A stretch of 64,000 bases of DNA, taken from the NCBI RefSeq assembly GCF_947507565.1, contig NC_089192.1:1110690-1174689 (forward strand), in the 5' to 3' direction. The stretch comes from Oscarella lobularis. Taxonomy: Eukaryota. The notes beneath the pieces were generated by a model. That model saw only the letters and a program-made list of their open reading frames with translations, was not told the DNA's origin and did not search any database. Positions 3,628 to 28,857 of the stretch are shown here, piece by piece. Made by a program: the position numbers and the translations under genes. The first letter of the stretch is position 1. The number at the start of each line of letters is the position of its first letter.

Positions 3628-3935
3628 GGCTCTAATATTTAGAGAAGGCTGCTCCTTGTCTCCACTAGAATTAGTGCTACAGGTAGATCGTGTCTGAGAT
3701 CAGAGATTCTTTTTATTTATTTTTTAAATTTAGGTTTATAACCCTTGTTTAGAATTATAACGTAGTGGGCGTATTTCTGCTACGTCTTGTCGCGACAAAT
3801 CTCAAACGTTTACCATCCGCTCAGCAAGAGACAGACAATGTAGAAAGTTACGGAAAACGCCTAAGCAAAAATAAGGTAGAAAAGCGTTGGCATGCACTAA
3901 ACAAACAGAGAATCGCGTACAGTCAGCTACGCGAG
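3628..3935. repeat. R5: shared 3' region between the convergent ZYG11-like and NHL-BTB genes
   Basis: Segment 'ctccactagaattagtgctacaggtagatcgtgtctgagatcagagattctttttatttattttttaaatttaggtttataacccttgtttagaattataa...' recurs at 3628-3935, 7494-7777, 13392-13724, 17286-17595, about 21066-21307, about 23950-24242 and about 26850-27146. It probably carries the 3' UTRs and polyadenylation signals of both genes. Confidence 0.5.
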
Positions 3936-4880
3936 TCATTTGCCAATGAGTCTCATTATTTCTGCTAATAAATTGACGCCAAGATTCTCCAACTTTTCAT
4001 CTTGGGATAGCTCCTTGTAGTGGCTCACGAAAAATTGCAGGCATTTCTCTCTCAAATCTCTAAAGCCGTACTTATCAGCAAGAAACAGATAATCAATAGC
4101 CGTTGCAGCTGAAACCGTCTTTGCCAAATAGGACATGCAGAAATCCCGCAGAGTGGAAATGAGAAAACGATCAGCCAATACCAATATATCCGGCATGTGG
4201 CTGCTGTATTTCTGTACGTCCAAGCAGCCAGTGAGAAGAAATGAAATGATTGCGTAGAACGATTCATAGGTAGCATCTTCAATAGCAGTTGGAGTGGATT
4301 CGGTCTCGGAAGATTTCCATTTCCACGAGAACATACTGTTGAAGTATTCGCTTCGAATGCAAAGAACCGATTTAGCGGTGACGGTGACGTGCTTTCCTTG
4401 AACTAAGAATACGGCTTTATCTGTAGAAACGATTTCTTCGTTGTCAATCAATTCCGCAAGATCATGTGAAAGTTCATCGAATGCTTTGAAGGAAGGAGGT
4501 GCAGCTTTTTGAAGGAAGGAGGTGCCACTCTCACTCTACGAACGGCCTTCTGCTCCGTAAAGTAAAGGTACCCCGACTTAGAATCAAAAAACAAATGACG
4601 AGGATAATACAATGACGCTAATTCGCCTTTGCCATCTGTAGACGCTGCCGCACCTGATCCGCAGAGAATTTCTTTTTCATTTGATGACAATGTCAGCTTG
4701 TAGATTCTATGCGAGAGATCAGAGAAGTAGACATTTCCGTCGTCGTCAACAGCAACACCATAAGGTGTATTGAGATTTTTTCAAACGGTTGAAACGTTGT
4801 GGTTTTTAATAAATCTTTCTGATAGCACCATTAGATCGGTCAGCCACATACACAGAACAGTCTGGTCCCACGGCTAATTG
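3936..4880 (-). pseudogene. NHL-BTB-BACK pseudogene fragment (BTB/BACK plus the last NHL blades; frameshifted, 5' part replaced by R4)
   Basis: ORF 3936..4451 encodes the BTB/BACK part ('DKAVFLVQGKHVTVTAKSVLCIRSEYFNSMF...'). The frame then switches to ORF 4448..4690. A TTAT insertion ('ggtttttaataaatctttc', about 4805) frameshifts blade 5. Homology ends at about 4880, where the R4 flank begins. Exons 1-2 are absent. The lesions are identical to the copy at 13725-14672. Confidence 0.6.
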
Positions 4881-5105
4881 ATCGTTGCATTGGAACGCGC
4901 CGAGCGACGTTGGAGGCGGCGCATATGAAATCGGCGGGAAAGCGCGGACGACGCGTCGACGGCCAATCGTTGCTCAGCGTTCGCCATCTACGGTAGGTAC
5001 ATGTACGCTCGCCGAAGCGGCGAGAAGGCGCGCATTGTAGCGCACGCTGTGAGTGACGGGACGGATCTTAGCAGGGATCTCTGTACCAAGTTCATCTGTT
5101 CTCCA

Positions 5106-7493
5106 ATGGCATCAAGTCTTGCCGATTTGTGCACGAGAAGCCTTTGCCGAACGGACTACGAGATCTCCTCGTTTCCATTTCCATCGATCGCCGAGAGAAT
5201 CCTTCTCCACTCGTCGTCGCCGCGTCGACTGCCTCTTCCGGTCGCCAACGCGCTCTTCGAAGGCTTGGCGCAACGAGGAAAACTGACGGAGAGAATTCTT
5301 CGCCTTTTCCTCAATCGCGATCGAGCAATGGTGACGTCACTTCCTCTCATTGGTCTCCGATCGATTCCTCGTGATGACGGAGAGACGACTTTCGTGCGTC
5401 GTCTTCAACAGCAAGCGTTCCTATGTCGCGTCGACGTATCGTTCAGTCATTGCGTCGGCGAACTTTCGGTTTCGCTTGTGAGCACCTTTGCCGACACGTG
5501 CAAAGACACGTTGCTTTCGTTTTCGGCTAGTCACGTGACCGGAGATCTTGGTATTTCGCGACTGAAAGACTTCACGCGATTGCGTCACGTCGATCTTAGC
5601 TACACGTCGGCGACGCCGAGCGACATCAACGCCGTGTGCGGCTCCTTGTGTCAGTTGCGTCATCTCGACGTATCCGGCACTGACGTTAGTTGGTATCACG
5701 TCTTTGGTTCGGCACGAGGACTCGATCAATTGGAGTACCTTGGCATGAGCGATTTGGTATTTTTGACATTAGACGAGTGGACGCTTGTCTCACAACCCTA
5801 CTTCAGCACTCGATGGATAACCAATTTCTTTTTGGTTACCACTAGGTTGTCTACACTCGACATTTCAGGAGTTATATGTAAGGGATTGCCATCAGACAAG
5901 TCTATTCTTTCAGCTGCATTTCATGAAATTGTCACTGGGGCACGGTCATTGACTCATCTCGAAACGAGTTTTCCAAAACTCCCTGAAGTTGTAGCTGGAT
6001 TGCAGCTCGGCAATCTATTTGACCAAATGAAGTATTTGGCTTATTATGGCGTCGTCACATCAATTCCAGATATTCTTTTGAACGCTGGGTGTCCTCGCTT
6101 TTTCTGCAGTACATCTTCTCGGCCACATCATTCAAGAGCGATAGACGTGAATAACGTCGATTTTGTGACGCTGGCTCTGAAAGGCGGACCGTCCTTTGGG
6201 ATGACTGCTCTGGGAATTCCGCGGTTATTTTATCGATGCGCGTTGTCATCGGATGCAGCCGATCGTCGTGACCTTCTTCGGCGCGTTATGTCGGCCGCTG
6301 TCGCCGTCGCCCGCTTCAAACTATTTCGCATCACCGGCACGTTCAAGTCCAACGCCGAGACGTTTTTGATATACGTTATTTATCTGAGAACAGCGCACAG
6401 GACGCATTGTCTCTTATGTTCAAAACCGTTGCCGAGACGCGGCTGTTGCTTTCGACCCAGACCGGTTCGTCGCTACGCCTTTGCCGATGATTTTTCTGAT
6501 TCATCGATAAAGGAGCTGTGGGATCAGATGGTTGAATCCTGTTTAGAAGCGGCTCTCAATCAACCTGCCGTTTTTCGACGCGACAGCAATGATCGAATTC
6601 TGTCTGCATTGTGCGCTGCGCTTTTCGTTACTCTTCCTCGACCTCCGCTTCGGTTCGCTGCCTTGACGTTTTTTCTGAACGCGCTAACTGGAAAGGAAAC
6701 TGGAGTTACGAGACGTCTTTCCACTTGCAGAAACTGCGCTGATGACGGCACGCCTGTGTCGGTGGCACTAAAGTCGATTTTTGAGTCTCTTTCCGACCAA
6801 GAGCGTCGTGGGCTTGCGCTAGAAAAGAACTGGCTTGCTCCGGTGTGCAATCACGTGGAGGCGATATGCACGGAACTGGGAACGTCATTGCTGGTTGCAG
6901 ATCGAACATTTCTTTCTAGAATTCCTCTTCTCAATCGTGACAGTCGCCTTTTCTTGGACATCCTCTACTACATGTCCCGTGATCTGCCGGATGTGCAGCG
7001 GCATTTGGTTCAAGACAGTAATCTGTTGACACTTCTGCCATTGTATTCATCGCCACCGGTGCACCACCACCGTCCAGAAGTGGAAAGATTAGATGCCGCG
7101 TCATCTCTGAGGGTACTGATTATTCTAGCTGAGAACGAGTCTCTGAGACATCGTCTGCTTTCGACGTCATCGTTGCAGATGCTCCTTGAATTTCATCCCT
7201 GTTTTGAGACCAGCTATCTTACTTGTCTACTTCTGCTGTGTGACGACGCTCCTTGGCCGGCGGATGTGCTCTCTAAAGACGCAATGGCTTACAGAATGAT
7301 TACATTGCGCGGCGACATGTTGACATCTTCTTTAGTAGAGGACACTCAGCGCTGCAGGTATTCAAGCAATACTGTTGCACGTCTACAAGATATGGCTGGA
7401 CGAAAGGACGTTCCACCCCCAGTAGGCTGGTTTGGGATGTACGTTCTCTCAAGGATGGATCAGCGTGTACAGATAAACCCAGCTTCTATTTAG
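5106..7493 (+). CDS. ZYG11/ZER1-like LRR + ARM-like protein, paralog 2 (796 aa from the conserved ATG)
   Basis: The ORF-track entry 5001..7493 starts earlier, but the conserved start 'MASSLADLC' is the ATG at 5106-5108. Otherwise colinear with paralog 1. Confidence 0.55.
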   Translation: MASSLADLCTRSLCRTDYEISSFPFPSIAERILLHSSSPRRLPLPVANALFEGLAQRGKLTERILRLFLNRDRAMVTSLPLIGLRSIPRDDGETTFVRRLQQQAFLCRVDVSFSHCVGELSVSLVSTFADTCKDTLLSFSASHVTGDLGISRLKDFTRLRHVDLSYTSATPSDINAVCGSLCQLRHLDVSGTDVSWYHVFGSARGLDQLEYLGMSDLVFLTLDEWTLVSQPYFSTRWITNFFLVTTRLSTLDISGVICKGLPSDKSILSAAFHEIVTGARSLTHLETSFPKLPEVVAGLQLGNLFDQMKYLAYYGVVTSIPDILLNAGCPRFFCSTSSRPHHSRAIDVNNVDFVTLALKGGPSFGMTALGIPRLFYRCALSSDAADRRDLLRRVMSAAVAVARFKLFRITGTFKSNAETFLIYVIYLRTAHRTHCLLCSKPLPRRGCCFRPRPVRRYAFADDFSDSSIKELWDQMVESCLEAALNQPAVFRRDSNDRILSALCAALFVTLPRPPLRFAALTFFLNALTGKETGVTRRLSTCRNCADDGTPVSVALKSIFESLSDQERRGLALEKNWLAPVCNHVEAICTELGTSLLVADRTFLSRIPLLNRDSRLFLDILYYMSRDLPDVQRHLVQDSNLLTLLPLYSSPPVHHHRPEVERLDAASSLRVLIILAENESLRHRLLSTSSLQMLLEFHPCFETSYLTCLLLLCDDAPWPADVLSKDAMAYRMITLRGDMLTSSLVEDTQRCRYSSNTVARLQDMAGRKDVPPPVGWFGMYVLSRMDQRVQINPASI

Positions 7494-7777
7494 GGCTCTA
7501 ATATTTAGAGAAGGCTGCTCCTTTTCTCTACTAGAATTAGTGCTACAGGTAGATCGTGTCTGAGATCAGAGATTCTTTTTATTTATTTTTTAAAATTTAG
7601 GTTTATAACCCTTGTTTAGAATTATAATGTAGCGAGGGTATTTCTGCTACATCTTCTCGCGACAAATCTCAAACATTTACCATTCGGATATTTTGAATTG
7701 CAGAAAACGCAGCTTAGCAAAAAAATAAGGCAGAAGTTGACAAACACAAACAGAGAGAATCGCGTCAGTTACGTGAG

Positions 7778-9370
7778 TTATTTGCCAATGAGTCTGATTA
7801 TTTCTGCTAATAACTTGACGCCAAGACTCTCAAACTTTTCATCTTGGCAAAGTACTTTGTAGTGAATCGCGACAAATTGCAGGCATTTCTCTCTCAAATC
7901 TCTAAAGCCGTAATTATCAGCAAGAGACAGATAATCAATAGCCGTTGCAGTCGAAACGGTCTTTGCCAAATAGGCCATGCAAAAATCACGCAGAGTGGAA
8001 ATGAGAAAACGATCAGCCAATATCAATATATCCGGCATGTTGCTGCTGTATTTCTGTACGTCCAAGCAGCCAGTGAGAAGAAATGAAATAATTGCGTAGA
8101 ACGATTCATAGGTAGCATCTTTGATAGAAATTGGATTGGATTCGGTCTCGGAAGATTTCCAATTTGACGAGAACATCCTGTTGAAGTAATCACTTCGAAT
8201 GCAAAGAACCGATTTAGCGGTGACGGTGACGTGCTTTCCTTGAACTAAGAATACGGCTTTATCTGCAGAAACGATTTCTTCGTTGTCGATCAATTGCGCA
8301 AGATCATGTGAAAGTCCGGCGTCATTAAATGCAGGAGGGGCTGCTTTTGCTGCCTCGAAGGAAGGAGGTGCCACTCTCACTCTACGAACGGCCTTCGGCT
8401 CAGTAAAGTAAAGGTACCCCGACTTGGAATCGAAAAACAAATGACGAGGATCTTTCAATGACGCTAATTGGCCTTTGCCATCTATAGACGCTGCTTCACC
8501 TGATCCGCAGAGAATTTCTTTTTCACTTGATGATGATGCCAGCTTGTAGATTCTACGCAAGCGATCAGAGAAGTAGACATTTCCGTCATCGTCAACAGCC
8601 ACACTATAAGGTTGGTTGAGATTTTTACAAACGGTTGAAACGTGGTGGTTTTTAATCTTTCTGATAGCACCATTTAATTGGTCAGCCACATACACAGAGC
8701 CGTCTGGTCCCACGGCTAATTGATTTGGGCTATTAAATTTGGCTTCAGCACAGTGACCATCAATGTTGCCTGGTTGGCCTGCGGAGCCTGCTAGCGTTGT
8801 TACGCGTCCATCAACCTCAATTCGACGTATTGCATGTCCGCCATGAGAAGACACTAAGACACTGCCATCTTGTAGTGCCACAATCCCCAATGGGTGATTG
8901 AATTGAGCTTCAGTAAGGCCTACTCCATCTCGTTCTCCACAGCTCCCATTGCCAGCTAATGTAGAGACGGTGTCACCACTCAGCTGCGAGAACGTTTTAT
9001 ACTCAGAACCGTGGCACATCTGTATCATTACCTTTCGAATGCGACAGTTGGCGTAGTCAGCAACAAAGAGACAAGAGCCGGACGAGGCAATGCCTCCTGG
9101 TTTGGAAAATGTCGCCGAGTTCAAAGTACCATCTTGGTGACCGGATCGGCTGGGAATCCCAGCATGGGTCGAGAGTTCCTGAGAGGAAAGATCAACTTTC
9201 CATATGCATTGTTGACCGTGATCTGCGACACACATTTGATCGTCTAAAATCGTGATTCCCCACAAGCACGAGAACGACTCGTGACGTGACGCAGTCGAGA
9301 GATATCCGTCTAAAAACGGAAAAGAGGCACGCTCAAATGTTTTTCACAAACGGAACTCCTTACATTCCAT
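7778..9370 (-). CDS. NHL(6 blades)-BTB-BACK protein, array copy 2 (3 exons)
   Basis: Exon 1 coding part is only 'ATGGAAT' (plus 9364-9370, rc) with donor GTAAGG. Intron 1 is 9310-9363 (54 nt, acceptor ttttccgtttttag). Exon 2 is 9309-9032. Intron 2 is 8984-9031 (48 nt, GTAATG...TCTCGCAG; in-frame and stop-free, so the ORF track reads through it). Exon 3 is 8983-7778. NHL blades include 'LAVGPDGSVYVAD', 'YSVAVDDDGNVYFSD' and 'GAIRKI'. The BTB domain includes 'DKAVFLVQGKHVTVTAKSVLCIRSDYFNRMF...ATYESFYAIISFLLTG', followed by a BACK-like helical region. The track 'M' at 9265 is a TTG codon. Confidence 0.7.
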
Positions 9371-10620
9371 TTAGGAACGCGCAGAAGGTGTACACTCAAA
9401 TGATGCGAGTGACAACACGCGCGTTAGATCTTGGCAGTCAACGTTTCCTCGCCGTCATGTTATTCCGAAGCTCTCTGCTTCTAACGGTTCTTTTCCGATG
9501 TTTGACCGGATTCGAAACCCAGATTCGTACGTCGACCGTCAGTTCGAACTCCCCGCTGATCGTTCGACGACTTCCCACCCTAGATTCGGCGCTACGACAC
9601 TTCGATACGCTTCGTACAGACGAAATAAAGCATTCTAGCATCGATCCCTCGCGCAGAAGAATGGAGGTGTCGATCCTCGGACGGTACAAGAACATCCAAG
9701 TGTCCTGGAAGATCCATTCGAATTCTTTTCGCTGTAGAAATTTTTCTCTGCACCTCTCGAACGACAATAACCTGTTGGCACCCACTTTTCGCGCAGTCGT
9801 TTCAGACGAAACAGATAGCAAGTCTTTGAGAAAATCAACCGAAAAGAGTTTTACATTGGAGAGGGTGGGATAGCTCATTTCCTTTCGTGGGTCTTTTTAA
9901 TTGTTAGAATTTCTCTCCTGGCGGCTAGCGCCAATTTTGTACGAGTCCAAAGTTCATAGAAATTCTCTCCTGGCTACAGGGATTTTCTATAATAACATAG
10001 AATTTCCCTTCTAATTTTTAAATTCAAAATGCCTTCTCTTTTAATCTAATGTTTTTTTCCAGAGGAAGACGGATCTTCTGTTTCGGCTCACATCGATTCG
10101 GAACAATTGGTCACAGCAACGATTCTCAGTCACGACGATGCGTACTATATCGAAGTAGGTGCACGTGCACTACTGTCTTATAGAGAAAATCACTTTCAAA
10201 AAATTCCTTAGCCGTCGCATCGACACATCGCAGAGCCGCACGATTTTCACATGATCGCCTATAGGAGATCGGACGTCGTGCGCAATTACGGCGAAAGAAA
10301 GGATAACGGAAGGTGATAAAAGAATTGTCTTAGAACTTTCCGAGGGTTATGCTGCCTCGAATATTTTTCCCTTTTAGTTTCTCTGGTCGTTTCTGTGGAG
10401 TCGACTCGGAAGAGCATCACGTAATTCATAATAACGGTGAAACTTCATCAATGAGAGTAGGAGGCAAGATTGTCTTATTGGTCTTGATAGATTTTTCTCA
10501 CTCGTGGTCGCGACTTCGGCGCGCCGTTCCCGCGCGACACACGTGCCCCATCGCACTCGTCGCCGATCACAAATTTTATCAGACTCTCGGTGGACGAAGT
10601 TTTTCTGGGACCATCAATTT
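9286..10620 (+). repeat. R1-R2-R3: co-duplicated copy of the ADAM10/17-like 5' exons, orphaned from the rest of the gene
   Basis: R1 holds the + strand ORF '[22 protein letters not shown]...' (signal peptide) then '[16 protein letters not shown]...[25 protein letters not shown]'. This resembles the human ADAM17 prodomain segment 'LDSLLSDYDILSLSNI...[25 protein letters not shown]'. R2 (about 10073-10200) reads '[37 protein letters not shown]', matching '[32 protein letters not shown]'. R3 (about 10370-10620) reads '[11 protein letters not shown]...[37 protein letters not shown]', matching the cysteine-switch, furin-site and catalytic-start segment 'KVCGYLKVDNEE...[27 protein letters not shown]'. 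Other copies sit at 19713-20170 (R1 part), 22830-23890 (R1+R2), 25760-26800 (R1+R2) and 28690-30040 (R1+R2+R3, contiguous with the gene body). Confidence 0.6.
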
Positions 10621-11009
10621 TATGGTATCCGTGCTTCAACACCCGCGCGCCCAGCGGAGAATAGTACGGGTAATCCCACCGCTCTCCGATTCATCGACCA
10701 TGAACGTCGAAGCGAGCGCCGATTCGGCCACGCTAGAGCGCGCGGCGTCGCCGAAAGCGACGCGCGCGCTCGTCGACGCGATCGAGAGCGATCGCGCGAC
10801 GAATACTGCATTGGAACGCGCCGAGCGACGTCGGCGGGAAAGCGCGGACGACGCGTCGACGGCCAATCGTTGCTCAGCGTTCGCCATCTACGGTATGTAC
10901 ATGTACGCTCGCCGAAGAGGCGAGAAGGCGCGCATTGTCTAGCGCACGCTCTAAGAGCCAGTGACGGATCTTAGCAGGGGATCTCAGTACCAAGTTCATC
11001 TGTTCTCCA

Positions 11010-13391
11010 ATGGCTTCAAGTCTTGCCGATTTGTGCACAAGAAGCCTTTGCCGAACGGACTACGAGATCTCCTCGTTTCCATTTCCAACGATATCCGAGA
11101 GAATCCTTCTCTACCCGTCGTCGCCGCGTCGACTGCCTCTTCCGGTCGCCAACGCGCTCTTCGAAGGCTTGGCGCAACGAGCAAAACTGACGGAGAGAAT
11201 TCTTCGCCTTTTCCTCGATCGAGATCGAGCGATGGTGACGTCACTTCCTCTCATTGGTCTCCGATCGATTCCTCGTGATGACGGAGAGACGACTTTCGTG
11301 CGTCGTCTTCGACAGCAAGCGTTCCTATGTCGCGTCGACGTATCGTTCAGTCATTGCGTCGGCGAACTTTCCGTGTCGCTTGTGAGCGCCTTTGCCGACA
11401 CGTGCAAAGACACGTTGCTTTCGTTTTCGGCTAGTCACGTGACCGGAGATCTTGGCATTTCGCGACTGAAAGACTTTACGCGATTGCGTCACGTCGATCT
11501 TAGCTACACGTCGGCGACGCCGAGCGACATCGACGTCGTGTGCGGCTCCTTGTGTCAGTTACGTCATCTCGACGTATCCGGCACTGACGTTAGTTGGTAT
11601 CGCGTCTTTGGTTCGGCGCGAGGTCTCGATCAATTGGAGTACCTTGGCATGAGCGATTTGGTATTTTTGACATTAGACCAGTGGACGCTTGTCTCTCAAC
11701 CCTACTTCAGCACTCGATGGATAACCAATTTCTTTTTGGCTACCACTAGGTTGTCTACGCTCAACATTTCAGGAGTTATATGTAAGGGATTGCCATCAGA
11801 CAAGTCTATTCTTTCAGCTGCATTTCATGAAATTGTCACTGGGGCACGGTCATTGACTCATCTCGAAACGAGTTTTCCAGAACTCCCTGAAGTTGTAGCT
11901 GGATTGCAGCTCGGCAATCTATTTGACCAAATGAAGTATTTGGCTTATTATGGCATCGTCACATCAATTCCAGATATTCTTTTGAACTCTGGGTGTCCTC
12001 GCTTTTTCTGCGATACATCTTCTGGGCTACATTGTTCAAGAGCGATAGACGTAAATAACGTCGATTTTGTGACGCTGGCTCTGAAAGGCGGACCGTCCTT
12101 TGGGATGACTGCTCTGGGAATTCCGTGGTTATTTGATCAATGCGCGTCGTCATTGGATGCGGCCGATCGTCGTGACCTTCTTCGGCGCGTTATGTCGGCC
12201 GCTGTCGCCGTCGCCCGCTTCAAACTATTTCGCATCACCGGCACGTTTGAGTCCAACGCCGAGACGTTTTTGATATACGTTATATGTCTGAGAACAGCGC
12301 ACAGGACGCATTGTCTCTTATGTTCAGAACCGTTGTTTAGGCCGAGACGCCGCTGTTGCATTCTACCCGGACCGGTTCGTCGGCATCGTCGCTACGCCTT
12401 TGCTGGTGATTTTTCTGATTCGTCGATAAAGGAGCTGTGGGATCAGATGATTGAATCCTGTTTAGAAGCGGCTCTCAGTCAACCTGCCGTTTTTCGACGC
12501 GACAGCAATGATCGAATCCTGTCTGCATTGTGCGCTGCGCTTTTCGTTGCTCTTCCTCGACCTCCGCTTCGGTTCGCTGCCTTGACGTTTTTTCTGAACG
12601 CGCTAACTGGAAAGGAAACTGGAACGAGACGTCTTTCCACTTGCAAAAAATGCGGTTATGACGGCACGTTGCCTATGTCGGTGGCACTAAAGTCGATTTT
12701 TGAGTCTCTTTCCGACCAAGAGCGTCGTGGGCTTGCGCTAGAAAAGAACTGGCTTGCTTCGGTGTGCAATCACGTGGAGGCGATGTGCACGGAACAGGGA
12801 ACATTATTGCTGGGTGCACATCGAATATCTCTTCCTCTTCTCAATCGTGAAAGTCGCCTTTTCTTTGACATCCTCTACTACATGTCCCGTGATCTGCCGG
12901 ATGTGCAGCGACGTTTGGTTCAAGACAGTAATCTGTTGACACTTCTGCCATGGTATTCATGGCCGCCGGTGAACCACTGTCCAGAAGTGGAAAGATTAGA
13001 TGCTGCGTCATCTCTGAGGGTACTGATTATTCTAGCTGAGAACGAGTCTCTGCGACATCGTCTGCTTTTTTCGACGTCATTGTTGCATATGCTCCTTGAA
13101 TTTCATCCCTGTTTTGAGACCAGCTATCTTACTTGTCTACTTCTGCTGTGTGACGACGCTCATTGGCTGGCGGATGTGCTCTCTAAAGACGACATGGCTT
13201 ACAGAATGATTACATTGCGTGGCGACATGTTGACATCTTCTTTAGCCGAGGACACTCATCGCTACAGGTATTCAAGCAATACTGTTGCACTTCTACAAGA
13301 TATGGCTCGACGAACGGACGTTCCACCCCCTGTAGGCTGGTTTGGGATGTACGTGCTCTCAAGGATGGATCAGCGTGTACAGATACAGTAA
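11010..13391 (+). CDS. ZYG11/ZER1-like LRR + ARM-like protein, paralog 3 (793 aa)
   Basis: ATG at 11010. Uninterrupted ORF colinear with paralogs 1 and 2. Confidence 0.55.
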   Translation: MASSLADLCTRSLCRTDYEISSFPFPTISERILLYPSSPRRLPLPVANALFEGLAQRAKLTERILRLFLDRDRAMVTSLPLIGLRSIPRDDGETTFVRRLRQQAFLCRVDVSFSHCVGELSVSLVSAFADTCKDTLLSFSASHVTGDLGISRLKDFTRLRHVDLSYTSATPSDIDVVCGSLCQLRHLDVSGTDVSWYRVFGSARGLDQLEYLGMSDLVFLTLDQWTLVSQPYFSTRWITNFFLATTRLSTLNISGVICKGLPSDKSILSAAFHEIVTGARSLTHLETSFPELPEVVAGLQLGNLFDQMKYLAYYGIVTSIPDILLNSGCPRFFCDTSSGLHCSRAIDVNNVDFVTLALKGGPSFGMTALGIPWLFDQCASSLDAADRRDLLRRVMSAAVAVARFKLFRITGTFESNAETFLIYVICLRTAHRTHCLLCSEPLFRPRRRCCILPGPVRRHRRYAFAGDFSDSSIKELWDQMIESCLEAALSQPAVFRRDSNDRILSALCAALFVALPRPPLRFAALTFFLNALTGKETGTRRLSTCKKCGYDGTLPMSVALKSIFESLSDQERRGLALEKNWLASVCNHVEAMCTEQGTLLLGAHRISLPLLNRESRLFFDILYYMSRDLPDVQRRLVQDSNLLTLLPWYSWPPVNHCPEVERLDAASSLRVLIILAENESLRHRLLFSTSLLHMLLEFHPCFETSYLTCLLLLCDDAHWLADVLSKDDMAYRMITLRGDMLTSSLAEDTHRYRYSSNTVALLQDMARRTDVPPPVGWFGMYVLSRMDQRVQIQ

Positions 13392-13724
13392 ACCCAGCTT
13401 GTATTTAGGGCTCTAAGGCTGCTCCTTGTCTCCACTAGAATTAGTGCTACAGGTAGATCGTGTCTGAGATCAGAGATTCTTTTTATTGATTTTTTAAATT
13501 TAGGTTTATAACCCTTGTTTAGAATTATAATGTAGCGAGCGTATTTCTGCTACATGTTGTCGCGACAAATCTCAAACGTTTACCATTCACATACCGCTCA
13601 GCAAGAGACAGACAATGTAGAAAGTTACAGAAAACGCCTAAGCAAAAAATAAGGCAGAAAAGCGTCGAGAAACAAAGCACGCACTAAACAAACAGAGAGA
13701 ATCGCGTACAGTCAGCTACGTGAG

Positions 13725-14672
13725 TCATTTGCCAATGAGTCTCACTATTTCTACTACTAACTTGACGCCAAGACTCTCAAACTTTTCATCTTGGCAGAGT
13801 ACTTTGTAATTGCTCACGACAAATTGCAGGCATTTCTCTCTCAAATGTCTAAAGCCGTACTTATCGGCAAGAGACAGATAATCAATAGCCGTTGCGGTTG
13901 AAACGGTCTTTGCCAAATAGGCCATGCAAAAATCACGCAGAGTGGAAATGAGAAAACGATCAGCCAATACCAATATATCCGGCATGTTGTTGCTGTACTT
14001 CTGTACGTCCAAGGAGCCAGTGAGAAGAAATGAAATGATTGCGTAAAACGATTCATAGGTAGCATCTTTTACAGAAATTGGAGTGGATTCGGTCTCGGAA
14101 GATTTCCAATTCGACGAGAACATACTGTTGAAGTAATCACTTCGAATGCAAAGAACCGATTTAGCGGTAACGGTGACGTGCTTTCCTTGAACTAAGAATA
14201 CGGCTTTATCTGTAGAAAGGATTTCTTCGTTGTCAATCAATTCCGCAAGATCATGTGAAAGTTCATCAAATGCTTTGAAGGAAGGAGGTGCTGCTTTTTT
14301 GAAGGAAGGAGGTGCCACTCTCACTCTACGAACGGCCTTCTGCTCCGTAAAGTAAAGGTACCCCGACTTAGAATCAAAAAACAAATGACGAGGATAATAC
14401 AATGACGCTAATTCGCCCTTGCCATCTGTAGACGCTGCCGCACCTGATCCGCAGAGAATTTCTTTTTCATTTGATGACAATGTCAGCTTGTAGATTCTAT
14501 GCGAGAGATCAGAGAAGTAGACATTTCCGTCGTCGTCAACAGCAACACCATAAGGTGTATTGAGATTTTTACAAACGGTTGAAACGTTGTGGTTTTTAAT
14601 AAATCTTTCTGATAGCACCATTAGATCGGTCAGCCACATACACAGAACAGTCTGGTCCCACGGCTAATTGAT
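13725..14672 (-). pseudogene. NHL-BTB-BACK pseudogene fragment (duplicate of the 3936-4880 fragment)
   Basis: ORF 13725..14639 covers NHL blades 5-6 and BTB/BACK. The same TTAT insertion and TAA as at about 4805 recur here ('agaaagatttattaaaaacc', about 14610). Upstream homology ends at the R4 junction (about 14655-14672). There are no 5' exons. Confidence 0.6.
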
Positions 14673-14891
14673 CGTTGCATTGGAACGCGTCGAGCGACGT
14701 TGGAGGCGGCGCATATGAAATCGGCGGGAAAGCGCGGACGACGCGTCGACGGCCAATCGTTGCTCAGCGTTCGCCATCTACGGTACATGTACGCTCGCCG
14801 AAGCGGCGAGAAGGCGCGCATTGTAGCGCACGCTGTGAGTGACGGGACGGATCTTAGCAGGGATCTCTGTACCAAGTTCATCTGTTCTCCA

Positions 14892-17595: not shown

Positions 17596-19157
17596 TCATT
17601 TGCCAATGAGTCTCATTATTTCTACTACTAACTTGACACCAAGACTCTCAAACTTTTCATCTTGGCACAGTACTTTGTAGTGGCTCACGACAAATTGCAG
17701 GCATTTCTCTCTCAAATCTCTAAAGCCGTACTTATCAGCAAGAGACAGATAATCAATAGCCGTTGCAGCTGAAACTGTCTTCGCCAAATAGCTCATGCAA
17801 AAATCACACAGAGTGGAAATTAGAAAACGATCAGCCAATATCAATATATCCGGCATGTTGCTGTTGTACTTCTGTACGTCCAAGCAGCCAGTGAGAAGAA
17901 ATGAAATGACTGCGTAGAACGATTCATAGGTAACATCTTCAATAGCAATTGGAGCGGATTCGGTCTCTGAAGATTTCCAATTCGACGAGAACATCCTGTT
18001 GAAATATTCACTTCGAATGCAAAGAACCGATTTAGCGGTGACGGTGACGTGCTTTTCTTGAACTAAGAAAACGGCTTTATCTGTAGAAACGATTTCTTCG
18101 TTGTCAATCAATTGCGCAAGATCATGTGAAAGTTCATCAAATGCTTTGAAGGAAGGAGGTGCCACTCCCACTCTACGAACGGCCTGCAGTTCGGTAAAGT
18201 AAAGGTACCCCGACTTGAAATCGAAAAACAAATGACGAGGATCGTTCAATGACGCTAATTCGCCTTTGCCATCTATAGACGCTGCTTCACCTGTTCCACA
18301 GAGAATTTCTTTCTCAATCGATGAGGATGCCAGCTTGTAGATTCTATGCGAGCGATCAGAGAAGTAGACATTTCCGTCATCGTCAACAGCCACACCATAA
18401 GGTGTGTTGAGATTTTTACAAACGGTTGAAACGTGGTGGTTTTTAATCTTTCTGATAGCACCATTGTTTCGGTCAGCCACATACACAGAACCGTCTGGTC
18501 CCACGGCTAATTGATCCGGATTATTAAATTTGGCTTCAGTACAGTGACCATCAATGTTGCCTGATTGACCTGCGGAGCCTGCTAACGTTGTTACGCGTCC
18601 ATCAGCTTCAATTTGACGTATTGTATGTCCGCCATGAGAAGACACTAAGACACTGCCATCTTGTAGTGCCACAATCCCGAATGGGTGATTGAGTTGAGCT
18701 TCAGTAAGGCCTACTCCATCTCGTTCTCCACAGGTGCCATTGCCAGCTAATGTAGAGACGGTGTCACCACTCAGCTGCGAGGGCGTTTTATACTCAGAAT
18801 CGTGGCAAATCTGTATCATTCACCTTTCGAACGCGATTGCCGCTGTAGTCAGCGACGAAGAGACAAGAACCGGAGGAGGAGGCAATGCCTGTTGGATTGG
18901 AAAATTTCGCCGAGATCAAAATACCGTCTTTGTGACCGCGACTGGATTGACCGGGAATCCCAGCATGGGCCGAGACTGCTTGAGAGGTAAGATCAACTTT
19001 CCAAATGCAGTTTTGACTGCTGTCTGCGACACACACTTGATCGTTTAGGATTGTGATTCTCCACAAGTACGAGAACGATTCGTGACGTGACACAGTCGTG
19101 ACAGATCCGTCTAAAACGGAAAGGAAGCGTGAAGGCTCAAGTACTAACGGCCCTCTT
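17596..19157 (-). CDS. NHL-BTB-BACK protein, array copy 4 (3 exons, apparently intact)
   Basis: Exon 1 'ATGGAAT' at plus 19151-19157 with donor GTAAAG. Intron 1 is about 50 nt. Exon 2 runs 19093-18824. Intron 2 is 18775-18823 (49 nt, GTGAAT...CCTCGCAG). Exon 3 runs 18774-17596. The apparent frameshift between ORFs 18794..19093 and 17596..18819 lies inside intron 2. Confidence 0.65.
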
Positions 19158-20222
19158 TACATTCCATTTGACCAGGGTCCGGCTGGGCAAGAAAACTGGC
19201 TGGGAAGGGCAGGGCTAGAGAGCACGGATCTTAGCTTAGACGAATGCCCAGGGGCGTCGCCACCGGCCCGGCCGGTCCGGCGCGAGCCGGGCCAATGTTT
19301 TCCAAAATAAAAACTATTTTTAGCAAGATAAACCGAGCCAAAATAGAATCTGTTAGAAAGGACATTGCATACGTGTACGATCATAGTGAAACCCGAAAGT
19401 TGGGCTTCCCGGACATAGCTACGGTATGTCCGAAGTTCGACATAAAGTCCGACTCTGACAGTTTGGTCGATTTGAGTATAATAAAGTTTTCTAAAGATAC
19501 AACAGAAAGAGCACGTGAATCCAACAAAGTGAACTTATTTAATGATTCTTCATTCTCTAAGTATTTACGATAAACATACATGAAACCTAATTGCACAAGT
19601 GGGCGTGGTCGAAAAAATTTTTCGCGGGCGCAAAACTACTCTCTCTCTATAAGCCGGGCCAAACGAAAAATCGATGCGACGCCCCTGATGCCTAGCTCTG
19701 TGCCTAAAAGAGTGACAACACGCGCGTTAGAAGTCAAAGCTTCCTGAGCCTTCCTCGCCATCTGCTTCTAACGGTTCTCTTCCCGTGTTTGACCGGATTC
19801 GAAACGCAGATTTGTACGTCGACCATCAGTTTGAAGTCCCCGCGCGATCGTTCGACGACTTCCACCCTAGATTCGGCGCTACGACACTTCCAACTTCGAT
19901 ACGCTTCGTACAGGCGAAACAAAGCATTCTAGCATCGATTCCTCTTGCAGAAGAATGGAGGTGTCGATCCTTGGACGGTACAAGAACATCCAAGTGTCCT
20001 GGAAGATCCATTCGAAGTCTTTTTGCTAGAAAGTTTGCTCTGAATCTCTTTTGGCACCCAATTTTCTCGCAGTCGTTTCCGACGAAGTAGGCAGATCGCA
20101 AGATTTTGAGAAAATCAACCGAAAAGAGTTTACATTGGAGAGGGTGGGATAGCTCATTTCCTTTCACATATTTGTGGCTTTTTTAATTCATAGAATTACT
20201 CTCTTCGCTAGAGCCAATTTCT

Positions 20223-21307: not shown

Positions 21308-22905
21308 CTAAGTGAGTCTCATTATTTCTACTACCAACTTGACGCCAAGACTCTCAAACTTTTCATCTTGGCAAAGTACTTTGTAGTGGCTCACGACAAA
21401 TTGCAGGCATTTCTCTCTCAAATCTCTAAAGCCGTACTTATCAGCAAGAGACAGATAATCAATAGCCGTTGCGGTTGAAACGGTCTTTGCCAAATAGGCA
21501 ATGCAAAAATCACGCAGAGTGGAAATGAGAAAACGATCAGCCAATATCAATATATCCGGCATGTTGCTGCTGTACTTCTGTACGTCCAAGGAGCCAGTGA
21601 GAAGAAATGAAATGATTGCGTAGAACGATTCATAGGTGGCATCTTTGATAGAAATTGGAGTGGATTCGGTCTCGGAAGATTTCCAATTCGACGAGAACAT
21701 ACTGCTGAAGTAATCACTTCGAATGCAAAGAACCGATTTAGCGGTGACGGTGACGTGCTTTCCTTGAACTAAGAATACGGCTTTATCTGTAGAAACGATT
21801 TCTTCGTTGTCAATCAATTGCGCAAGATCATGTGAAAGTTCATCGAATGCTTTGAAGGAAGGAGGTGCAGCTTTTTTGAAGGAAGGAGGTGCCACTCTCA
21901 CTCTACGAACGGCCTTCTGCTCCGTAAAGTAAAGGTACCCCGACTTAGAATCAAAAAACAAGTGATGAGGTAGATTCAATGACGCTAATTCTCCCTTGCC
22001 ATCTGTAGACACTGCCGCACCTGATCCGCAGAGAACTTCTTTTTCATTTGATGACAATGCCAGCTTGTAGATTCTATGCGAGAGATCAGAGAAGTAGACA
22101 TTTCCGTCATCGTCAACAGCCACACCATAAGGTGTGTTGAGATTTTTACAAACGGTTGAAACGTGGTGGTTTTTAATCTTTCTGATAGCACCATTAGCAC
22201 CACTAGATCGGTCAGCCACATACACAGAACCGTCTGGTCCCACTGCTAATTGATCTGGGTGATTAAATTTGGCTTCAGTACAGTGACCATCGGTGTTGCC
22301 TGGTTGGCCTGCGGAGCCTGCTAGCGTTGTTACGCGTCCATCAACCTCAATTCGACGTATTGTATGTCCGCCAAAAGAAGACACTAAGACACTTCCATCT
22401 TGTAGTGCCACAATCCCGAATGGGTGATTGAATTGAGCTTCAGTAAGGCCTACTCCATCTCGGTCTCCACGGGTGCCATTGCCAGCTAATGTAGAGACGG
22501 TGTCACCACTCAGCTGCGAGAGCGTTTTATACTCAGAACCGTGGCAAATCTACGTGTATCCATTACCTTTCGAATGCGATTCCTTTCGCACTCAGTGACG
22601 AAGAGACAGCAACCGGAGGAGGCAATGCCTACTGGTTTGGAAAATGTCGCCGAGTTCAAAGTACCGTCTTGGTGACCGGATTGGCCGGGAATGCCAGCAT
22701 GGGCCGAGACTTCTTGAGAGGTAAGATCAACTTTCCAAATGCAGTGTTGATTGAAGTCTGAGACACACACTTGATCGTTTAGGATCGCGATTCCCCACAA
22801 GTACGAGAACGATTCGTGACGTGACACAGTCGAGACAGATCCATCTAAAAACGGAAAAGAGGCACGCTCAAATGTTTTTCACAAACGGAACTCCTTACAT
22901 TCCAT
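21308..22905 (-). CDS. NHL-BTB-BACK protein, array copy 5 (3 exons)
   Basis: Exon 1 ATG at plus 22903-22905. Exon 2 is 22827-22567. Intron 2 is 22514-22566 (53 nt, GTAATG...CTCGCAG). Exon 3 is 22513-21308. A 15-nt in-frame deletion at the C-terminus gives '...EIMRLT*' instead of '...EIMRLIGK*'. Confidence 0.6.
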
Positions 22906-24242: not shown

Positions 24243-25833
24243 TCATTTGCCAACGAGTCTCACTATTTCTACTACTAACTTGACGCCAAGACTCTCAAAC
24301 TTTTCGTCTTGGCACAGTACTTTGTAGTGGCTCACGACAAATTGCAGGCATTCCTCTCTCAAATCTCTAAAACCGTACTTATCTGCAAGAGACAGATAAT
24401 CAATAGCCGTCGCAGCTGAAACCGTCTTTGCCAAATGAGTCATGCAGAAATCACGCAGAGTGGAAATGAGAAAACGATCAGCCAATACCAATATATCCGG
24501 CATGTTGCTGCTGTACTTCTGTACGTCCAAGGAGCCAGTGAGAAGAAATGAAATGATTGCGTAGAACGATTCATAGGTAGCATCTTCAATAGCAATTGGA
24601 GCGGATTCGGTCTCGGAAGATTTCCAATTTGACGAGAACATCCTATTGAAGTAACCACTTCGGATGCAAAGAACCGATTTAGCGGTGACGGTGACGTGCT
24701 TTCCTTGAACTAAGAACACGGCTTTATCTGTAGAATCGATTTCTTCGTTGTTGATCAATCGCGCAAGATCATGTGAAAGTTCATCAAATGCTTTAAAGGA
24801 AGGAGGTGCTGCTTTTTTGAAGGAAGGAGGTGCCACTCTCACTCTACGAACTGCCTTCTGCTCCGTAAAGTAAAGGTACCCTGACTTAGAATCGAAAAAC
24901 AAATGATGAGGATCATTCAATGACGCTAATTCGCCCTTGCCATCTGTAGACGCTACTTCACCTGATCCGCAGAGAATTTCTTTTTCACTTGATGATGATG
25001 CCAGCTTGTAGATTCTATGCGAGAGATCAGAGAAGTAGACATTTCCGTCATCGTCAACAGCCACACCATAAGGTTGGTTGAGATTTTTACAAACGGTTGA
25101 AACGTGGTGGTTTTTAATCTTTCTGATAGCACCATTACATCGGTCAGCCACATACACAGAACCGTCTGGTCCCACGGCTAATTGATGTGGGACATTAAAT
25201 TTGGCTTCAGCACAGTGACCATCAGCGTTGCCTCGTAGACCTGCGGAGCCTGCTAACGTTGTTACGCGTCCATCAACCTCAATTCGACGTATTGTATGTC
25301 CGCCATAAGAAGACACTAAGACACTCCCATCTTGTAGTGCCACAATTCCGAACGGGATATTGAATTGAGCTTCAGTAAGGCCTTCTCCATCTCGTTCTCC
25401 ACAGGTGCCATTGCCAGCTAATGTAGAGAGGGCGTCACCACTCAGCTGCGAGGGCGTTTTATACTCAGAACCGCGGCAAATCTGTATCATTACCTTTCGA
25501 ATGCGATTGCTGTCGCACTCAGCGACGAAGAGACAAGAACCGGAGGAGGCAATGCCTACTGGACCAGAAAATGTCGCCGAGTTCAAACTACCGTCTTGGT
25601 GACCGGATTCGCCGGGAATCCCAGCATGGGCGGAGACTTTTTGAGAGGTAAGATCAACTTTCCAAATGCACTTTTGAGTGTGATCTGCGACACACAATTG
25701 ATCGTTTAGGATCGTGATTCCCCACAATTCCGAGAACGACTCGTGACGTGCCACAGTCGAGACAGATCCGTCTAAAAACGGAAAAGAGGCACGCTCAAAT
25801 GTTTTTTCACAAACGGAACTCCTTACATTCCAT
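24243..25833 (-). CDS. NHL-BTB-BACK protein, array copy 6 (3 exons, apparently intact)
   Basis: Exon 1 ATG at plus 25831-25833. Intron 2 is 25446-25493 (48 nt, in-frame and stop-free). Exon 3 reaches 24243. The track 'M' at 25754 is a GTG codon. Confidence 0.65.
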
Positions 25834-27146: not shown

Positions 27147-28748
27147 TTATTTGCCAATGAGTCTGATTATTTCTGCTAATAACTTGACGCCAAGACTCTC
27201 AAACTTTTCATCTTGGCACAGTACTTTGTAGTGGCTCACGACAAATTGCAGGCATTCCTTTCTCAAATCTCTAAAACCGTACTTATCAGCAAGAGACAGA
27301 AAATCAATAGCCGTTGCAGCTGAAACCGTCTTTGCCAAATGGGTCATGCAGAAATCACGCAGAGTGGAAATGAGAAAACGATCAGCCAATACCAATATAT
27401 CCGGCATGTTGCTGCTGTACTTCTGTACGTCCAAGGAGCCAGTGAGAAGAAATGAAATGATTGCATAGAACGATTCATAGGTAGCATCTTCAATAGCAAT
27501 TGGAGCGGATTCGGTCTCGGAAGATTTCCAATTTGACGAGAACATCCTATTGAAGTAATCACTTCGAATGCAAAGAACCGATTTAGCGATGACGGTGACG
27601 CGCTTTCCTTGAACTAAGAATACGGCCTTATCTGCAGAAACGATTTCTTCGTTGTCAATCAATAGCGCAAGATCATGTGAAAGTCCGGCATCATTAAATG
27701 CTTTGAAGGAAGGAGGGGCTGCGTTTGCTGCTTTGAAGGAAGGAGGTGCCACTCTCACTCTACGAACGGCCTTCGGCTCTGTAAAGTAAAGGTACCCTGA
27801 CTTAGAATCGAAAAACAAATGATGAGGATCATTCAATGACGCTAATTCGCCCTTGCCATCTGTAGACGCTGCTTTACCTGATCCGCAGAGAATTTCTTTC
27901 TCAATTGATGATGATGCCAGCTTGTAGATTCTATGCGAGCGATCAGAGAAGTAGACATTTCCGTCATCGTCAACAGCCACACCATAAGGTGCATTGAGAT
28001 TTTTACAAACGGTTGAAACGTGGTGGTTTTTAATCTTTCTGATAGCACCATTGGATCGGTCAGCCACATACACAGAACCGTCTGGTCCCACGGCTAATTG
28101 ATCTGGATTCATAAATTTGGCTTTAGCACAGTGACCATCAGTGTTGCCTGGTTGACCTGCGGAGCCTGCTAACGTTGTTGCGCGTCCGTCAACCTCAATT
28201 TGACGTATTGTATGTCCGCCATAAGAAGACACTAAGACACTCCCATCTTGTAGTGCCACAATCCCGAATGGGTGATTGAATTGAGCTTCAGTAAGGCCTA
28301 CTCCATCTCGTTCTCCACAGGTGCCATTGCCAGCTAATGTAGAGACGGTGTCACCACTCAGCTGCGAGAGCGTTTTATATACTCAGAAGTCTGAACCGTG
28401 GCAAATCTGCATCATTACTTTTCGAATGCGATTTCCGTCGTACTCAGCGACGAAGAGGCAAGAACCGGAGGAGGCAATGCCTGTTGGACCGGAAAATTTC
28501 GCCGAGATCAAAAATCCGTCTTGGTGACCGGATTGGCCAGGAATCCCAGCATGGGCGGAGACTGCAAGATCAACTTTCCAAATACACGTTTGAGCGTAGT
28601 CTACGACACACAATTGATCGTTTATGATCGTGATTCCCCACAAGTTCGAGAACGACTCGTGACAGGACACAGTGGAGACAGATCCGTCTGAAACGGAAAA
28701 GAGGCATGCTCAAATGTTCTTTTACAAACGGCTTTCCTTGCATTCCAT
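27147..28748 (-). CDS. NHL-BTB-BACK protein, array copy 7 (3 exons; GC donor in intron 1)
   Basis: Exon 1 'ATGGAAT' at plus 28742-28748, followed by GCAAGG (a GC-AG intron candidate). Exon 2 is 28670-28419. Intron 2 is 28362-28418 (57 nt, GTAATG...CTCGCAG). Exon 3 is 28361-27147. Confidence 0.55.
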
Positions 28749-28857
28749 TTAGGAACGCGCAGAAGGTGCTCAGATGATTGACAGGGTCCGGCAAGGCGGG
28801 GCTAGAGAGTGACAACACGCGCGTTAGAACTTTTGCAGTCAACGCTTCCTCGCCGTC

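Follow-up and report, generated by a model that had tools for sequence, protein, structure and literature searches.

A tandem array of NHL-propeller/BTB genes in the sponge Oscarella lobularis with two short predicted introns, the second specific to the array

Organization of the gene array

The window analysed here (64,000 nucleotides, positions 1,110,690 to 1,174,689 of NC_089192.1) is nuclear DNA of the homoscleromorph sponge Oscarella lobularis, and its positions 1-19235 are 100% identical to contig ptg000061l of the ENA assembly ERZ18545485. At the protein level, too, the top matches belong to O. lobularis. Using tblastn on the window we identified nine loci with NHL-propeller/BTB paralogs, all on the minus strand, and the number of array copies is unequal between haplotigs. 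On sequence grounds, these SPOP-like genes form a tandem array with structural polymorphism and would encode proteins with an NHL propeller, a BTB and a BACK domain. An earlier note on this DNA, made from the letters by a model, ascribed the same structure to all nine loci, but the complete 5' structure (exon 1, intron 1, exon 2 and intron 2) is present in seven. Copies 1 (3939..4895) and 3 (13725..14685) are 5'-truncated and lack exons 1 and 2 together with both introns; copy 1 is a fragment from approximately residue 178 with an internal frameshift, and copy 3 starts from approximately residue 178-192. The spliced products are 490-496 aa long in six copies (2, 4, 5, 6, 7 and 8), and dN/dS values for the exons are mostly <1 among the paralogs.

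Gene models

For copy 2, the coding part of exon 1 (9364..9370) is ATGGAAT, corresponding to Met, Glu and the first base of a Tyr codon. It is followed by intron 1 (9310..9363; 54 nt, phase 1, GTAAGG...TTTTTAG, with an in-frame TGA inside), exon 2 (9032..9309; 278 nt, covering the strand that closes the propeller, then blade 1 and the larger part of blade 2), intron 2 (8984..9031; 48 nt, phase 0, GTAATG...TCGCAG, in-frame and stop-free with the translation VMIQMCHGSEYKTFSQ) and exon 3 (7778..8983; 1206 nt including the stop codon, covering the remaining NHL propeller, a linker, BTB and BACK). The spliced product is a 496-aa NHL-propeller and BTB/BACK protein.

Copy 4 (17596..19167) has exons at 19167-19161, 19110-18824 and 18774-17596, encoding 490 aa; its intron 1 is 50 nt with the donor GTAAAG, and its 49-nt intron 2 (18823-18775) causes a frameshift if retained. 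Copy 5 (21308..22905; exons 22905-22899, 22844-22567 and 22513-21308; 496 aa) has a 54-nt intron 1 and a 53-nt intron 2 (22566-22514). Copy 6 (24243..25833; exons 25833-25827, 25771-25494 and 25445-24243; 495 aa) has a 55-nt intron 1 and, as in copy 2, a stop-free intron 2 of 48 nt (25493-25446; translation VMIQICRGSEYKTPSQ). In copy 7 (27147..28748; exons 28748-28742, 28687-28419 and 28361-27147; 496 aa) exon 2 has a 9-nt in-frame deletion, the 54-nt intron 1 has a GC donor (GCAAGG), with a weak GT located 12 nt further downstream as an alternative, and the 57-nt intron 2 (28418-28362) contains an in-frame TGA.

Copy 8 (57205..58797; exons 58797-58785, 58730-58450 and 58395-57205; 494 aa) has 13 coding nt in exon 1, ATGGACTCCGAAT, and an intron 1 (58784-58731; 54 nt) that is in-frame and stop-free, while its 54-nt intron 2 (58449-58396; donor GTTATT, acceptor TTTAAG) has two in-frame stops. 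Finally, in copy 9 (59688..61256) ATGGAAT is at 61256-61250, intron 1 is 53 nt, exon 2 spans 61196-60929 and intron 2 is 53 nt (60928-60876). A 10-nt deletion in exon 2 of this copy introduces a frameshift that splicing does not repair, and the spliced ORF therefore ends after 102 aa; the allele of the alternate haplotype is intact.

Exon 1, start codon and intron 1

The coding exon 1 described in the earlier note, ATGGAAT with a 13-nt version in copy 8, is found in all seven 5'-complete copies (ATGGAAT in copies 2, 4, 5, 6, 7 and 9), and the peptide consensus that it gave for the sequence after intron 1 is also correct as quoted. Exon 1 would consist of the 5' UTR plus ATGGAAT as its sole coding part. 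The start codon has an A at -3 and a G at +4, and in copies 2, 5, 6 and 7 an in-frame TAA is positioned directly upstream of the ATG. Without splicing, the ORF opened by this ATG is 6-8 codons long in copies 2, 4, 5, 6 and 7, and in copy 8 it reads through the stop-free intron 1 from the annotated ATG. No Met is present upstream of the acceptor in the exon-2 frame in any copy except copy 8, where this Met is the annotated ATG, and the next in-frame Met in copies 4-6 is at residue 359-367. A real start codon elsewhere would make the short exon irrelevant; in copies 2, 4, 5, 6 and 7 there is no usable alternative.

Just upstream of the copy 2 ATG we found a conserved 14-nt motif, CTTCTGCGCGTTCC (9374..9387, minus strand), which is also present at 22909-22922, 25837-25850, 28752-28765 and 58806-58819 (five exact matches in total vs 0.48 expected by chance) and is missing upstream of copy 4. 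It is probably a core-promoter or 5'-UTR element. Upstream of copies 2, 5, 6 and 7 there is also a tRNA-like sequence, for which neither ARAGORN nor Rfam returned a match.

In the seven 5'-complete copies intron 1 begins with GTAAGG, GTAAAG, GTAAGC or GCAAGG and ends with TTTTAG or TTTCAG. The GTAAGG/GTAAAG donor that the earlier note gave for all copies does thus not apply to copy 7, with its GCAAGG. Intron 1 is present at the homologous position, and in phase 1, in all distant paralogs (the P0011, P0012, P0019 and P0021 genes), and the coding part of exon 1 varies between 7 and 34 nt (34 nt in P0011, 13 in P0012, 16 in P0019 and 22 in P0021). Judged from these gene sequences, intron 1 is an old, family-wide intron, and it immediately precedes the propeller's first beta-strand, i.e. 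the ring-closing strand. Among copies 2, 5 and 6 intron 1 is 100% identical whereas exon 2 is only 85-90% identical, a pattern resembling that of mosaic gene conversion. For exon 2, positive selection was considered and rejected; dN/dS reaches 1.4 in only two pairs with 6 synonymous changes, and is 0.4-0.8 in the other pairs.

Intron 2

The splice sites of intron 2 are GTAATG, GTGAAT, GTTATT or GTATTA at the donor and TCGCAG, TTTAAG or TTGAAG at the acceptor, and its length is 48, 49, 53, 48, 57, 54 and 53 nt in copies 2, 4, 5, 6, 7, 8 and 9, respectively. Our data confirm that it is 48 nt, in-frame and stop-free in copies 2 and 6, and that it is 49-57 nt with stops or frameshifts in copies 4 (49 nt), 5 (53 nt) and 7 (57 nt, TGA). 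In alternate haplotigs, versions of 48, 51 and 54 nt are present, all of 3n length and stop-free. Overall, five of the ten intron 2 versions (copies 4, 5, 7, 8 and 9) have frame-breaking indels or stops.

The features are those of a U2-type intron: donor/acceptor sequences and a pyrimidine-rich tract at both boundaries, restoration of the frame on removal (in six copies; copy 9 is the exception because of its exon 2 frameshift) and non-coding-like evolution. With respect to the latter, copy 8 shares 0.56-0.62 identity with copies 2-7 in intron 2, as opposed to 0.77-0.79 in exon 2 and 0.84 in exon 3. Copies 2 and 6 differ at four nucleotides in intron 2, all of which change the amino acid, and the codons that copy 6 has in common with the alternate copy-9 allele do not differ at the DNA level; synonymous-only changes were seen in neither comparison. 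The suggestion that the segment evolves as an intron is borne out by these data together with the varied lengths and the stops in some copies, and both the length and the sequence of intron 2 drift as in neutral non-coding DNA. Moreover, a phase-0 48-nt intron of equal composition is stop-free in 38% of shuffles, and since copies 2 and 6 share the stop-free state by descent it counts as one event, not two. The 3n stop-free 48-nt form in these two copies is a shared sub-clade state that is unremarkable by chance.

Intron 2 is present only in this array; the other NHL-BTB paralogs of the genome have a continuous ORF after intron 1. Several possible sources of the segment were considered and rejected. 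One was an origin from Val and Gln codons, given that the intron ends are GTA (Val) and CAG (Gln) and that distant paralogs have 'VQ' (RIRKVQLGDG), which would mean a 42-nt insertion between the two codons. MAFFT places the Leu after the junction against Val/Ile of the paralogs, the loop length differs among clades (between 5 and 7 residues), and any phase-0 GT...CAG intron gives V...Q automatically. A repeat or introner was rejected since, within the window, the sequence is found at the paralogous positions and nowhere else. As to a fragment of an NHL repeat, the intron core CACGGTTCTGAGTA matches the blade 4 DGSVY codons at 13 of 14 nt; with an E-value of 1.9 in BLAST and no similarity beyond this stretch, we treated the match as chance.

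Predicted proteins

The proteins match the Pfam families NHL (53 bits), TEN_NHL (57 bits), BTB/POZ (PF00651; E = 6.5e-17, 62 bits vs a cut-off of 20.5) and BACK (PF07707; 22.5 bits vs a cut-off of 20.9), while BACK_BPM_SPOP, with 27.2 bits, is slightly below its cut-off of 27.4. Matching sequences in the PDB are NHL propellers of the PknD and Pizza type as well as the BTB-BACK of SPOP and KLHL11. In the AlphaFold model, residues 5-298 form the 24 strands of the propeller, i.e. six blades of four strands, with pLDDT mostly >90; the N-terminal strand 5-11 completes blade 6, and residues 408-495 are helical. The intron 2 junction (K95|L96) falls within the third strand of blade 2 (residues 92-97). 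This differs from the earlier note, which placed the residues of a retained intron 2 between NHL blades 2 and 3.

The BTB and BACK domains are similar to those of SPOP and KLHL11 and the domain that binds substrates would, like that of SPOP and RCBTB1, be N-terminal to the BTB; the array proteins are presumably CUL3 substrate adaptors. The N-terminal domain is, however, a six-bladed NHL propeller and not MATH, RCC1 or Kelch as in adaptors of the SPOP/KLHL/RCBTB type. Other NHL propellers (the PknD sensor domain, the 'Pizza' designs, NHLRC2, the teneurin NHL and TRIM71) share the six NHL repeats and the six-bladed fold, but in the array proteins the propeller is fused to BTB-BACK instead of a kinase, thioredoxin or TRIM module.

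Comparison with public annotation

The spliced translations of copies 2, 5, 6 and 8 are identical, residue for residue, to RefSeq XP_065843705.1, XP_065843703.1, XP_065843704.1 and XP_065843692.1, respectively (the copy 5 protein is also identical to P0003). This identity covers the ME|Y start as well as the splicing out of intron 2. The gene model of the earlier note is therefore correct and already public. That splicing rescues copies 4, 5 and 7 stands with respect to the reading frame, giving full-length ORFs of 490, 496 and 496 aa; for copies 4 and 7 an identical public protein was not found. For copy 9, RefSeq has a 400-aa protein (XP_065844124.1) that starts at an ATG within intron 2. 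RefSeq also joins copies 5 and 6 into a single gene, of which they are isoforms together with a chimeric X1 that has non-canonical splice sites at the junction, which means that its annotation is not flawless at this locus.

Discussion

We conclude with high confidence that the intact copies are three-exon genes with two ordinary short (48-57 nt) U2-type spliceosomal introns, of which intron 2 is specific to the array. Splicing in vivo is suggested via the RefSeq models, which themselves are predictions. Our search of the literature on intron statistics in O. lobularis gave nothing usable. A start codon near the first intron and short introns that occasionally are in-frame are common; the gene structure is normal and biologically nothing is unexpected.

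There is a substantial chance, somewhat short of even, that the rescued copies are not all working genes in spite of the intron model, and that this birth-and-death array has pseudogenes or null alleles in copy 9 (on the present haplotype) and possibly in copies 4 and 7. This would fit the 10-nt deletion in copy 9 next to its intact counterpart on the alternate haplotype, the GC donor combined with the 9-nt deletion in copy 7, the missing CTTCTGCGCGTTCC motif in copy 4, the lack of identical public proteins for copies 4 and 7, the truncation of copies 1 and 3, and the copy number difference between haplotigs. For copies 4 and 7, which may also simply be silent, the spliced ORFs are however full length with dN/dS <1 vs most paralogs, and GC-AG introns are a normal minority class.

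A different question is whether copies 2 and 6 use intron 2 as a functional, regulated, exitron-like retained intron, with part of their mRNA including these 48 nt, escaping NMD and encoding 16 additional residues in the blade 2 hairpin, between the third and fourth strands. Exitrons, stop-free 3n introns and the NMD 'spell-checking' of retention are known concepts (PMC5014332, PMC2911113, PMC4484396), and copies 2 and 6 fit short stop-free 3n introns, the retention of which is an in-frame insertion invisible to NMD, as do the alternate alleles of 48, 51 and 54 nt. In the structural model the insertion point precedes the hairpin loop, where an insertion could be tolerated, and for copy 2 retention predicts the tryptic peptide VMIQMCHGSEYK. 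In contrast to exitrons, intron 2 shows neither coding-type constraint across the paralogs nor selection for or against the stop-free state, which is lost in half of the paralogs and alleles, and its divergence is at the level of neutral sites. Further arguments against a functional retained form are the amino-acid-changing differences between copies 2 and 6, the frequency of the stop-free state among shuffles, and that no retained isoform of the copy 2 and 6 genes was found among the RefSeq proteins. We consider regulated retention improbable, and an isoform that retains intron 2 would be a speculative possibility only.

That the genes are not spliced at all and instead are the long uninterrupted ORFs of the ENA assembly, with ATGGAAT irrelevant, has naive ORF calls among the ENA proteins (P0001, P0004, P0006 and P0008) on its side and is nevertheless exceedingly improbable: P0001 starts at Met28 of copy 2 and reads through intron 2, including its 16 residues, but Met28 is present in copy 2 only (in other copies the first Met is at residue 105-367), the 27 residues upstream of it are conserved across paralogs down to ~50% identity and form the ring-closing strand and the first strand of blade 1 (pLDDT ~95), unless intron 2 is removed the frame shifts in copies 4 and 5 and runs into stops in copies 7 and 8, and the splice is used in the RefSeq models.

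Within the three-exon reading, the origin of intron 2 can be considered. An unlikely though not negligible scenario is that intron 2 is a young lineage-specific intron gained in the array ancestor, that the 48-nt stop-free form is near the original state (for example, an in-frame hairpin insertion in blade 2 that was later spliced out), and that copies 2 and 6 are still able to express both forms. With respect to gain vs loss of intron 2, the paralog tree gives only an unrooted three-way split. If the scenario is true, the array would represent a natural series of a new intron losing its coding compatibility.

The practical value of the result concerns annotation. ORF-based calling, as in the ENA-derived proteins, gives a truncated N-terminus, 16 spurious residues or starts inside intron 2, while RefSeq is right for copies 2, 5, 6 and 8. 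Finally, with intron 2 limited to one young, copy-number-variable array, the locus might be of use as a small-scale example for studying how an intron is gained or lost in a sponge.

Gene models across the array

A tblastn search of the window with the spliced copy 2 protein gives nine NHL-BTB loci, all on the minus strand (copies 1 to 9, numbered by coordinate). Copy 2 consists of coding exon 1 (ATGGAAT, 9370-9364), a 54-nt intron 1 (GTAAGGAGTTCC...CCGTTTTTAG, 9363-9310), exon 2 (278 nt, 9309-9032), a 48-nt intron 2 (GTAATGATACAGATGTGCCACGGTTCTGAGTATAAAACGTTCTCGCAG, 9031-8984) and exon 3 (1206 nt), with the stop codon at its end, 7778 (all minus strand). Joining the exons gives a 1491-nt CDS for a protein of 496 aa (N-terminus MEYGYLSTASRHESFS), with NHL and TEN_NHL repeats predicted by Pfam in the first ~300 residues followed by BTB (E = 6.5e-17) and BACK domains. 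In a PDB sequence search the N-terminal part matched PknD-type ('Pizza') NHL propellers, NHLRC2 and teneurin NHL domains, and the C-terminal part SPOP and KLHL11 BTB-BACK.

The earlier note assigned the same structure to all nine loci, which is wrong for copies 1 (3939-4895, minus) and 3 (13728-14685, minus); both begin at approximately residue 178-192 and lack exon 1, intron 1, exon 2 and intron 2. The 5' region is present in the other seven (copies 2, 4, 5, 6, 7, 8 and 9). Coding exon 1 is 7 nt in these, except in copy 8, where it is 13 nt as noted (ATGGACTCCGAAT). Intron 1 is 50 nt in copy 4, 53 nt in copy 9, 55 nt in copy 6 and 54 nt in copies 2, 5, 7 and 8; with respect to its proposed GTAAGG/GTAAAG donor, copy 4 indeed has GTAAAG while copy 7 has GCAAGG. 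Intron 2 is 48 nt and stop-free in copies 2 and 6, 49 nt in copy 4, 53 nt in copies 5 and 9, 57 nt with an in-frame TGA in copy 7, and 54 nt with two in-frame stops in copy 8. Removing it gives copies 4, 5 and 7 full-length reading frames, as had been claimed (spliced ORFs of 490, 496 and 496 aa), and copies 6 and 8 encode 495 and 494 aa; exon 2 of copy 9 has lost 10 nt, which ends its ORF at 102 aa. Apart from the points corrected here, explicit spliced models reproduced the lengths, peptide strings and coordinates of the note exactly.

Evolution is fastest in exon 2 (9032-9309 and the paralogous segments), which spans the closure strand to most of blade 2. Its dN between copies 2-7 is 0.10-0.18, and dN/dS rises to as much as 1.4 in two pairs; the intron 1 flanking it has 100% identity between copies 2, 5 and 6. 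These alignments suggest mosaic gene conversion, relaxed or diversifying selection acting on the N-terminal blades, or both.

Public annotation

An exact-sequence look-up showed that spliced copies 2, 5, 6 and 8 correspond residue for residue to the RefSeq proteins XP_065843705.1, XP_065843703.1, XP_065843704.1 and XP_065843692.1, respectively; for copies 4 and 7, the searched collection contained no protein identical to the spliced product. Public annotation therefore already includes both the 7-nt (or 13-nt) coding exon 1 and the splicing out of intron 2, and the gene model is correct and public. Naive ORFs reading through intron 2, as anticipated, do occur in the ENA assembly: protein P0001 contains VMIQMCHGSEYKTFSQ and starts at Met28, while the ORF-style proteins P0004 and P0008 begin within intron 2. 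The RefSeq model of copy 9 (XP_065844124.1, 400 aa) likewise starts from an ATG within intron 2, consistent with the exon 2 frameshift. RefSeq isoform X1 (XP_065843702.1, 501 aa) combines copy 6 residues 1-313 with the C-terminal 194 residues of copy 5. Its junction, from 24794 to 21892, falls within a repeated AAPPSFK motif and lacks GT-AG boundaries; the probable source is a transcript of a recombinant haplotype or an artefact of alignment, not a splice.

The start codon

A real start codon elsewhere would make the ATGGAAT exon irrelevant; inspection of the upstream frames and unspliced ORFs of the copies revealed no alternative start. The ATG has A at -3 and G at +4, is directly preceded by an in-frame TAA in copies 2, 5, 6 and 7, and opens an unspliced ORF of only 6-8 codons in copies 2, 4, 5, 6 and 7. 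Extending the exon 2 frame upstream through intron 1 gives no Met, except in copy 8 (intron 1 in-frame), and the next in-frame Met is residue 28 in copy 2 only and residues 359-367 in copies 4-6. The YG(Y/S)VST motif directly after the intron 1 acceptor is conserved even in ~50% identical paralogs, and in the AlphaFold model (mean pLDDT 80.8; >90 across the propeller) this region forms strand 5-11, the fourth strand of blade 6, which closes the ring. The residues after intron 1 must be translated, and the AUG lies only in the spliced mini-exon.

Intron 2 evolves as an intron

The intron 2 lengths in the window (48, 49, 53, 48, 57, 54 and 53 nt in copies 2 and 4-9) and in alternate haplotigs (48, 51 and 54 nt) include several that are not multiples of three, and five of the ten versions carry a frameshift or stops. 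Within copies 2-7 intron 2 diverges by 4-10%, the same as synonymous sites in the neighbouring exon 3 (dS 0.06-0.16), and copy 8 is 56-62% identical to copies 2-7 in intron 2, vs 37-52% in intron 1, 77-79% in exon 2 and 84% in exon 3. This bears out the view that the segment evolves as intron. The two 48-nt versions (copies 2 and 6) differ at four nucleotides, each altering an amino acid (M/I, H/R, F/P), and the codons common to copy 6 and the intact alternate copy 9 allele are identical in DNA, with none of the synonymous substitutions expected under purifying selection. A 48-nt phase-0 intron of such composition is stop-free in 38% of shuffles, and copies 2 and 6 owe their stop-free state to shared ancestry. 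Within the window, intron 2 is not a dispersed repeat. Judged from these comparisons, intron 2 appears coding in none of the versions.

Short introns of 3n length without stops escape NMD if retained, and some genomes show selection against them (PMC5014332; PMC2911113); exitrons, described in plants and humans, are coding-like, often 3n and alternatively spliced (PMC4484396). Intron 2 resembles exitrons in length and lack of stops in two copies (2 and 6), but differs in showing no coding constraint. The retained insert had been placed between blades 2 and 3. Counted in Pfam-style sequence repeats, it indeed comes after NHL repeat 2, but structurally the junction K95|L96 lies within blade 2, inside its third strand (92-97) and directly ahead of the hairpin leading to strand 100-105 (AlphaFold model). 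A 16-residue insertion there could conceivably lengthen a bottom-face hairpin in the model; a retained-intron isoform of copies 2 and 6 is unsupported speculation.

Haplotypes, duplication and neighbouring sequences

Proteins of Oscarella lobularis give the best protein matches. Window positions 1-19235 match contig ptg000061l of ENA assembly ERZ18545485 at 100% identity; alternate haplotigs from this assembly are ~97.5-98.5% identical. Haplotypes differ in the structure of the array (window 14673-22960 vs haplotig L003/atg000821l), and ~8 kb with copies 4 and 5 is missing from one alternate haplotig. The alternate copy 9 allele (haplotig L004, 9880-10420), whose exon 1 measures 13 nt (ATGGACTCGGAAT) and whose 54-nt intron 2 contains no stops, is intact; the window allele (60929-61196) carries the 10-nt frameshifting deletion. 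A segmental duplication of ~6.2 kb (895-7037 vs 10665-16853, 91.6% identity) contains the truncated copies 1 and 3, whose upstream sequences are almost identical and unrelated to the normal 5' end, together with large ORFs.

These belong to four paralogous intronless ORFs of ~800-860 aa on the plus strand (1234-3627, 5001-7493, 11010-13391 and 14700-17285), interleaved with copies 1-4 on the opposite strand. They gave no Pfam domain or PDB sequence match, show leucine-rich-repeat-like motifs by eye, and represent a second, uncharacterised gene family that was amplified together with the array. Unrelated neighbours are ORFs with a Spondin_N domain (33159-34523, minus; E = 1.5e-86) and a Sushi/SCR repeat (61945-62754, plus).

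A perfectly conserved 14-mer, CTTCTGCGCGTTCC, lies 3-8 nt 5' of the ATG in five copies (9374-9387, 22909-22922, 25837-25850, 28752-28765 and 58806-58819, minus; five matches vs 0.48 expected) and is absent from copy 4. A palindrome-like (C/A)TGCGTAAAAGT(A/G)CGCA(G/T) is present just upstream in copy 8 and distant paralogs (e.g. 13395-13420 of L007, a sequence carrying a distant paralog gene). Both are candidate promoter or 5'-UTR elements. A tRNA T-arm-like sequence, CGAATCTGGGTTTCGAATCCGGTCAAAC, common to ~9500-9540, 23050-23090, 25980-26019 and 28900-28935 (minus), gave no ARAGORN or Rfam match and could be a SINE remnant.

Age of the two introns

All distant paralogs fetched from elsewhere in the assembly have a phase-1 intron at the homologous site, just before Gly-Tyr/Phe, and the sole variable there is the exon 1 coding length: 13 nt in the P0012 gene (ATGGAGGAGGACG|GTGAGT), 16 nt in P0019, 22 nt in P0021 and 34 nt in P0011. 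Two of their first introns, of 54 nt (L007, 11677-11730) and 66 nt (L005, 10017-10082), are also in-frame and stop-free, read through by naive ORFs and spliced out by RefSeq. As the 54-nt intron 1 of copy 8 (58731-58784) is likewise 3n and stop-free, such short introns seem unexceptional in this genome.

Intron 2 was found in none of the distant paralogs examined, whose ORFs are continuous past intron 1. An unrooted neighbour-joining tree divides into three deep groups and supports the array clade with 100% bootstrap, and on this tree a gain of intron 2 in the array ancestor would be at least as parsimonious as its loss elsewhere. The locus has an ordinary eukaryotic gene structure within a birth-and-death tandem array, and a recent, array-specific gain of intron 2 is the candidate for the least ordinary reading remaining.
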